From Escherichia coli (GTDB lineage Bacteria; Pseudomonadota; Gammaproteobacteria; Enterobacterales; Enterobacteriaceae), in NCBI RefSeq assembly GCF_041886205.1, contig NZ_CP169029.1: 64,000 nucleotides of DNA. One strand, given 5' to 3'. This document shows, in pieces, positions 35,092 to 36,050 of the stretch (position 1 is its first letter; each line of letters opens with the position of its first letter). Under the pieces are notes generated by a model that saw only the letters and a program-made list of their open reading frames with translations, ran no database searches and was not told the DNA's origin. Both the position numbers and the translations under genes were made by a program.

Positions 35092-35556
35092 TTACTTTAA
35101 ACACTGTTCGGTTATGTATTGCTGAGCACCTTCAAGTTGGGCCTGCATCATTACCAGTCGTTCCCGGAGGGTGAAATAATCCCGTTCAGCGGTGTCTGCC
35201 AGTCGGGGGGAGGCTGCATTATCCACGCCGGAGGCGGTGGTGGCTTCACGCACTGACTGACAGACTGCTTTGATGTGCAACCGACGACGACCAGCGGCAA
35301 CATCATCACGCAGAGCATCATTTTCAGCTTTCGCATCAGCTAACTCCTTCGTGTATTTTGCATCGAGCGCAGCAACATCACGCTGACGCATCTGCATGTC
35401 AGTAATTGCCGCGTTCGCCAGCTTCAGTTCTCTGGCATTTTTGTCGCGCTGGGCTTTGTAGGTAATGGCGTTATCACGGTAATGATTAACAGCCCATGAC
35501 AGGCAGACGATGATGCAGATAACCAGAGCGGAGATAATCGCGGTTACTCTGTTCAT
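35092..35556 (-). CDS. spanin inner-membrane subunit Rz
   Basis: N-terminal TM helix, coiled-coil periplasmic domain; start overlaps the endolysin stop. Confidence 0.85.
35151..35336 (-). CDS. spanin outer-membrane lipoprotein Rz1, embedded in Rz in the +1 frame
   Basis: 61 aa with lipobox (LVVVGC) and proline-rich mature region. Confidence 0.8.
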
Positions 35557-36050
35557 TGCTGACCCCACAAACAGATTTCACGCTCAATCTCACGACGAGT
35601 CATGAGACCTTTCCATTGCTTACCGCCAGCATATGTCCAGCGACGTAGCTGATCACATGCGCCTTTGATATCGCCCTAGTTTATTTTGCGAAGAAGCGTC
35701 GATGTTCTGAAATTGCCAGCACCCACGTTGTAAACGAATGAGTAAAGAGCGCCGCGCATTGTTTCCGGTATATCGACTTTGATGTACGGGTTAATTTGTC
35801 TGGCGACCGTGGCAAGGTCTTTATTCAGGAGGGCTTTGCATTCTGCTTTGGTATACGTTTTACCGGGAATGATGTCTTTTCCTGTATGCCCGTGACATAC
35901 AGTCCATACACCAACAATATCTTTGTATGGTATGTAGCTGACACCTTCCAGACCATCGTTACCACTTGGGCCAGTAATTAACACTGATGCTATAGCAATT
36001 GCTCCGCCACCAATAGCAGCAGCAACGGCTTTTCGTAATGATGGAGGCAT
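35553..36050 (-). pseudogene. SAR endolysin (phage 21 R-type lysozyme) interrupted by an in-frame amber codon
   Basis: N-terminal signal-anchor-release helix and E/D/T catalytic residues; TAG at 35676..35678 after codon 124, with a further 40 in-frame codons of endolysin-like sequence to a TGA. Confidence 0.8.

Follow-up and report, generated by a model that had tools for sequence, protein, structure and literature searches.

The closest described counterparts of the gene examined here are the phage 21 endolysin R21 (PDB 3hde/3hdf) and RrrD of the K-12 prophage DLP12 (PDB 4zpu), with which it shares gene order and overlapping stop and start codons. SAR endolysins achieve their own export and are able to cause lysis in the absence of a holin, which makes any leaky expression in cryptic prophages a hazard. 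Two further systems bear on an amber codon in such a gene. Deamination of 5-methylcytosine is a textbook route to an amber codon, and the CCAGG sites of lacI are the classical Dcm amber hotspots. In phage stop-codon recoding, suppressor tRNAs of the phage read TAG as Gln, and the affected genes are frequently late or lysis genes. The N-terminal segment of SAR endolysins acts in signal-anchor-release (PMC6116005), and CCWGG is a hotspot of G:C-to-A:T transitions that are corrected by Vsr (PMC2715241; PMC13250602).

The window, i.e., the whole stretch of 64,000 nucleotides of Escherichia coli DNA that was analysed, carries a lysis cassette of the phage 21 type in which the endolysin frame is interrupted. 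Its features are as follows.

36050..36265, minus strand: class II holin (essD, S21-type pinholin), 71 aa, with the dual-start motif MKSM
35553..36050, minus strand: endolysin gene (rrrD/R21 type, SAR endolysin, GH24), 165 codons with an amber at codon 125
35679..36050, minus strand: translated N-terminal endolysin fragment, 124 aa, keeping the SAR membrane domain (residues ~8-27)
35676..35678, minus strand: in-frame TAG amber codon, CAG (Gln125) in close relatives
35553..35675, minus strand: untranslated C-terminal endolysin remnant, 40 sense codons plus TGA, same as the wild-type sequence
35092..35556, minus strand: Rz (inner-membrane spanin), 154 aa, intact, PHROG 13, named rzpD in the annotation of relatives
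35151..35336, minus strand: Rz1 (outer-membrane lipoprotein spanin, rzoD), 61 aa, inside Rz in another frame, with lipobox LVVVGC

Translation of 36050..35553 gave a 124-codon open reading frame ending in ...STLLRKIN, followed by TAG, 40 further codons and a TGA. The TGA and the Rz ATG overlap in ATGA (35556..35553); at the other end of the gene, the holin TAA stop and the endolysin ATG have one base in common. With the stop repaired, the endolysin is identical to phage 21 lysozyme R21 (PDB 3hde) at 163 of 165 residues, and it is nearly as close to DLP12 RrrD (PDB 4zpu). More specifically, residues 1-60, which cover the whole N-terminal SAR segment, are those of R21, the prototype SAR endolysin, whereas residues 61-62 are IP instead of ML and codon 125 is TAG instead of CAG. 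Pfam PF00959 (GH24) matched the repaired protein over residues 34-156 (E = 9.4e-46), and a PHROG endolysin match was obtained for the 124-aa fragment; the full reading frame over this catalytic domain is broken by the TAG, which drops residues 125-165. The holin matched PF04971 and PHROG holin families, and its DNA is the same as that of the copy in E. coli wlxctx60, which is annotated as essD (WP_000839596.1). Likewise, Rz matched PHROG 13 across profile positions 1-154 of 154 (E = 1.3e-78) and Rz1 matched PHROG 3198 (E = 2.3e-29). None of these three genes has an internal stop. With a class II holin upstream and Rz with embedded Rz1 downstream, the layout is that of a pinholin/SAR endolysin/two-component spanin cassette, and the endolysin gene is, as judged from its sequence, a disrupted member (pseudogene) of the phage-21-type SAR endolysin family. 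A terminator-like hairpin lies upstream of the holin (36426..36405, minus strand).

The ancestral state of codon 125 was read from close relatives. Across 1401 bp spanning the cassette, the nearest complete genome, wlxctx60, differed from the window solely at position 35678, where the plus strand has A in the window and G in wlxctx60 (i.e., TAG versus CAG on the coding strand), and two more relatives likewise have G. The window and wlxctx60 are collinear over 46.7 kb, with 11 SNPs, an indel of one base and a single IS insertion between them. Because only 11 SNPs separate them over this distance, the nonsense change must be recent, and its recency accounts for the 40 downstream codons still being perfect. 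No homologue that naturally ends at residue 124 was found in PDB, Pfam and protein-cluster checks: solved homologues align as far as residues 142-165, and among the members listed from the 90% protein cluster, the shorter ones are "partial" sequences that lose N-terminal residues at contig ends but keep the C-terminus. An intact ancestral gene in close relatives, together with loss of part of the GH24 domain in the window, is indicative of a nonsense pseudogene. The original prediction, made from the letters of the window, had described a frame ending in STLLRKIN and TAG with 40 more codons to a TGA overlapping the Rz start, a single CAG-to-TAG change, loss of the C-terminal quarter and a SAR endolysin. 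Each of these proposals was borne out, the lost part being residues 125-165 of a protein whose GH24 domain runs to 156 and the family being that of phage 21; the comparison with related alleles that it had suggested found CAG in the relatives.

At least 14 contigs carry the exact 124-aa product; they come from two assemblies at NCBI, one metagenome assembly at ENA and several Logan assemblies, the last built from separate short-read runs. The matching full-length allele is on 160 contigs. Every 124-aa copy sits between the same holin and Rz; of the 10 places shown, 9 extend beyond this, all with a full-length Rz, and trkG came next in the eight that were long enough. Overall, the TAG contigs showed 0-4 SNPs per 3-6 kb in the holin-R-Rz-trkG context, several being 100% identical to the window across 3.5 kb and others differing by 1-4 SNPs. 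The amber allele is thus real and inherited. Downstream of 32939, within the ynaK/ParB-like region, five TAG-allele contigs part from the window; the product there is 298-325 aa long versus 263 aa, and the allele thus occurs on at least two structural haplotypes. In one further contig, the same R gene is followed by a divergent Rz (22 mismatches).

The allele is nonetheless rare. Among the 3,503 RefSeq complete E. coli records that matched a 61-mer around the codon, 3,501 did so with one mismatch and the exact TAG form was found in 1. The TAG 61-mer was absent from the phage records (0 of 88 with a match) and the plasmid records (0 of 26 with a match), and on these counts a laboratory amber phage or plasmid construct was rejected. 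A TAG 35-mer gave zero matches in IMG/VR and in JGI metagenome contigs, and wider circulation of the allele was therefore discarded as well. The corresponding CAG 35-mer gave at least 120 IMG/VR matches, and among these the gene was intact over its 165 codons in 105 of the 109 evaluable copies.

The changed base lies within a single methylation motif.

35675..35679: former Dcm site, CCTGG (plus strand)/CCAGG (minus strand) in relatives and CCTAG/CTAGG in the window

The coding strand of the relatives reads AAC-CAG-GGC and contains CCAGG, in which the base at 35678 is the inner C, the Dcm target. This motif, at codons 124-125, is the sole CCWGG in the 498-bp endolysin gene, and a C-to-T change at its inner C on the coding strand produces exactly Q125 to TAG, whereas the same event on the opposite strand is silent (CAG to CAA). 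The Dcm-site C-to-T is one of 67 single-base routes to a stop in the gene. With CCAGG in the relative and CTAGG in the window, the ancestral motif and its altered inner C are as Dcm deamination would leave them, and the methylation hotspot would explain why it was codon 125 that changed. We infer that, most likely, the inner C of the only Dcm site in the gene was methylated and, as 5-methylcytosine, deaminated spontaneously (C-5mC-AGG to CTAGG), and that the resulting T:G mismatch then escaped very-short-patch repair. The dcm-vsr locus lies outside the window, and an ordinary error of replication would produce the same C-to-T transition. As at the classical Dcm hotspots, conversion of the inner C of CCAGG to T turns an in-frame CAG into TAG; the present case, unlike those, is a natural prophage polymorphism rather than the product of a laboratory mutation screen.

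The same change was found a second time. E. coli O39:NM F8704-2 carries the exact TAG 61-mer in rrrD (P411_RS22340), which PGAP annotates as a pseudogene with an "internal stop"; thus, the mutation is already known as an annotated internal stop in a RefSeq genome. Both genes show CAG to TAG at codon 125 and CCAGG to CTAGG, and both lie in degraded prophages. In contrast, the F8704-2 allele has 32 other nucleotide differences from the window gene, and its holin, Rz, prophage and chromosomal site are all different, indicative of an independent event. Over 1001 bp, F8704-2 differs from its nearest relative, 2013C-3264 (CAG), by a single base, the amber base. Because the F8704-2 allele is distinct and its nearest relative has CAG, the CAG-to-TAG change at codon 125 must have arisen at least twice. 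This recurrence, observed in one F8704-2 assembly of unknown sequencing technology, fits a Dcm hotspot and is supporting rather than decisive. The Q antiterminator of the F8704-2 prophage, located as given below, carries a W104 amber, and its sole difference from 2013C-3264 is CCTGG to CCTAG, at the Dcm methylated position.

13159..13827 and 14148..14816, in two extracted F8704-2 stretches: Q antiterminator of the F8704-2 prophage

Between the F8704-2 and 2013C-3264 prophages there are ~17 SNPs in ~10 kb, two of them at Dcm methylated positions and both amber-creating; these two differences, within 6 kb of each other, could in principle be methylation-related miscalls of the single assembly.

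The surroundings of the cassette were read from the annotation of the collinear relative wlxctx60, from which the gene content of the prophage was taken. The main features are these.

~25,700..45,650 (~20 kb): defective lambdoid prophage at the lambda attachment site, between ybhB-bioA and ybhC
38124..38507, minus strand: late-gene antiterminator Q (quuD), intact, from the relative's annotation and the open reading frames
36853..37935, plus strand: OmpC/Lc/NmpC-type porin, antisense between Q and the holin, as in DLP12 and PA-2
39899..41207: IS3-family insertion sequence inside the prophage gene ybcN, not in wlxctx60, with OrfA at 39952..40278, OrfB at 40275..41166 and an ALIL frameshift pseudoknot at 40233..40349

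From ybhC, the order is int, xis, ea8.5, a truncated O, a frameshifted P-like gene, ren, emrE, the nin region, rusA and quuD, followed by the porin in the opposite orientation, essD-rrrD-rzpD/rzoD, trkG, a partial ynaK, tail fragments and a diguanylate cyclase, before ybhB-bioA. No head, terminase or immunity genes are annotated in the remnant in wlxctx60, and because these are missing the remnant cannot make virions. The setting thus differs from that in phage 21 and DLP12, the window gene being in a lambda-attachment-site remnant beside trkG. The remnant is a mosaic: its late region is DLP12/PA-2-like, its trkG/ynaK part is Rac-like, and it includes tail fragments. The phage PA-2 record J02580.1 was among those matching the endolysin 61-mer. 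It carries emrE and a sensor diguanylate cyclase (26348..27679) as cargo genes, and Rfam placed an IS009 RNA at 27796..27994 (minus strand), within its tail-fibre-assembly region. The IS3-family element in ybcN is presumably IS629-like, to go by its OrfA. In one IMG/VR copy of the endolysin gene, the N-terminus is broken by the end of an element; the translation of this end closely matches that of the IS in the window, with one residue different, and the copy exemplifies another route of decay, unrelated to the amber.

Taken together, we hold it highly probable that Q125amber is a genuine, inherited nonsense allele in a non-viable cryptic lambdoid remnant, with an origin in 5-methylcytosine deamination and a fate of neutral decay. 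Of this, the base change, its CAG ancestor, its reality, its Dcm setting and its second occurrence were observed, whereas the chemistry behind it, the loss of enzyme activity and the absence of selection are inferred. The most direct challenge is that the base was simply miscalled or misassembled, for instance through a methylation-related error at the Dcm motif in a long-read assembly. CCWGG motifs are trouble spots for nanopore base-calling, and the site does lie in one. Nevertheless, the 124-aa product recurs with the same flanking genes on at least 14 independent contigs, several of which match the window at 100% over 3.5 kb, which excludes a sequencing error, and since 152 CCWGG sites are intact in the window and the remaining 10 of the 11 SNPs relative to wlxctx60 all fall outside Dcm sites, systematic miscalling at methylated sites is unlikely as well; an artefact is thus scarcely credible. 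Hardly more plausible is a conditional allele, in which either programmed readthrough or a suppressor tRNA of the supE type would decode the TAG as Gln, giving wild-type protein at a reduced level. The TAG stands in place of a Gln codon, such that a Gln-inserting suppressor would regenerate the wild-type protein, and the 40 codons beyond it are perfectly intact, but such intactness is expected at 11 SNPs per 46.7 kb, and the nearest relative simply has CAG. Moreover, ARAGORN and Rfam reported zero tRNA genes within the 64-kb window, so that no element-encoded suppressor tRNA was seen there, and the cassette has one in-frame TAG rather than several, with holin, Rz and Rz1 uninterrupted; in a non-viable prophage, lysis timing would also be without phage function. 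The likeness to phage stop-codon recoding, in that a Gln position of a lysis gene is occupied by an in-frame TAG, is therefore superficial, given a remnant with a single TAG, no suppressor tRNA in the window, CAG relatives and no virions. The original prediction had offered both pseudogenisation and an amber-suppressible allele. The former agrees with the CAG codon and 165-aa protein of close relatives and with the "internal stop" that RefSeq records in another strain, whereas the latter found no backing in the tRNA search, the single TAG of the cassette or the non-viable remnant. Its description of the cassette as otherwise intact holds for the four genes, in which holin, Rz and Rz1 are uninterrupted, but not for the surrounding prophage, which is heavily degraded.

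What the truncated gene does, and whether its loss was favored, are the other points at issue. Translation is predicted to halt past residue 124, which would keep the SAR anchor and the positions E35, D44 and T50 (numbered after R21), which we take to be the catalytic Glu, Asp and Thr. That these all lie upstream of the stop is what speaks for a 124-aa fragment that still works as a muralytic enzyme in a functional cassette. However, residues 125-156, the last quarter of the GH24 domain (34-156), are lost, and with them two helices (128-137 and 152-163) predicted by a low-confidence single-sequence structure model (mean pLDDT 54); none of the PDB homologues ends at this point, and the shorter listed cluster members keep the C-terminus. 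Because this last quarter of the lysozyme domain is missing, the fragment is very probably inactive, and a working enzyme seems very unlikely, although some residual activity is conceivable with the catalytic residues retained. As the prophage makes no virions, nothing would maintain the endolysin for phage release, and the amber allele would then represent neutral decay, or be mildly beneficial at most. Adaptive loss of function, in which the amber was selected for defusing the endolysin or for altering peptidoglycan turnover or vesicle production, is unlikely but the least implausible of the alternatives. It would draw on an inherited allele in at least 10 independent samples with haplotypes differing downstream, on the independent occurrence of the same knockout in a second degraded prophage (F8704-2) and on the reported expression of the DLP12 lysis operon with effects on vesicle production (PMC7918800); positive selection would also be consistent with its persistence across several haplotypes that differ slightly. 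Against this, the allele is rare in the RefSeq, phage and plasmid records with a match (1 of 3,503, 0 of 88 and 0 of 26, respectively), its 35-mer is absent from IMG/VR and the JGI metagenomes, the IMG/VR copies being intact in 105 of 109 cases, the holin is untouched although it is lethal when triggered, and the Dcm hotspot already accounts for the recurrence. Given this rarity and the hotspot explanation, selection need not be invoked. A variant of the same idea, that the single Dcm site at codons 124-125 is a recurrent off-switch exploited by selection in stranded prophages, with parallel ambers as the result, strikes us as improbable; if true, hosts would gain from knockout of the SAR endolysin, and methylation-driven C-to-T change would raise the rate at which it arises.

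Neutral decay of a deamination-derived amber allele being preferred, the locus is a nonsense pseudogene of an ordinary kind; the cryptic prophage around it is decaying, and the origin of the mutation at a Dcm site is well supported. Annotations should call the gene an rrrD/R21-type endolysin pseudogene (internal stop) and not a 124-aa lysozyme. Beyond annotation its importance is small, but it is a clean natural example of the stepwise decay of a stranded prophage and of an amber at a Dcm-methylated CCAGG. Should the recurrence at codon 125 prove to be selected, it would add in a small way to how hosts domesticate or defuse prophage lysis genes, which the data do not require.

The holin and the spanins are still encodable, as judged from their reading frames. 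A G-rich stretch lies shortly 5' of the Rz ATG, and Rz could initiate independently of R, while the lost translational coupling to R may lower Rz expression. Elsewhere in the window, Rfam placed an ES036 sRNA at 17388..17429 (plus strand), and a Moco riboswitch lies upstream of moaA at 15979..16123 (minus strand).
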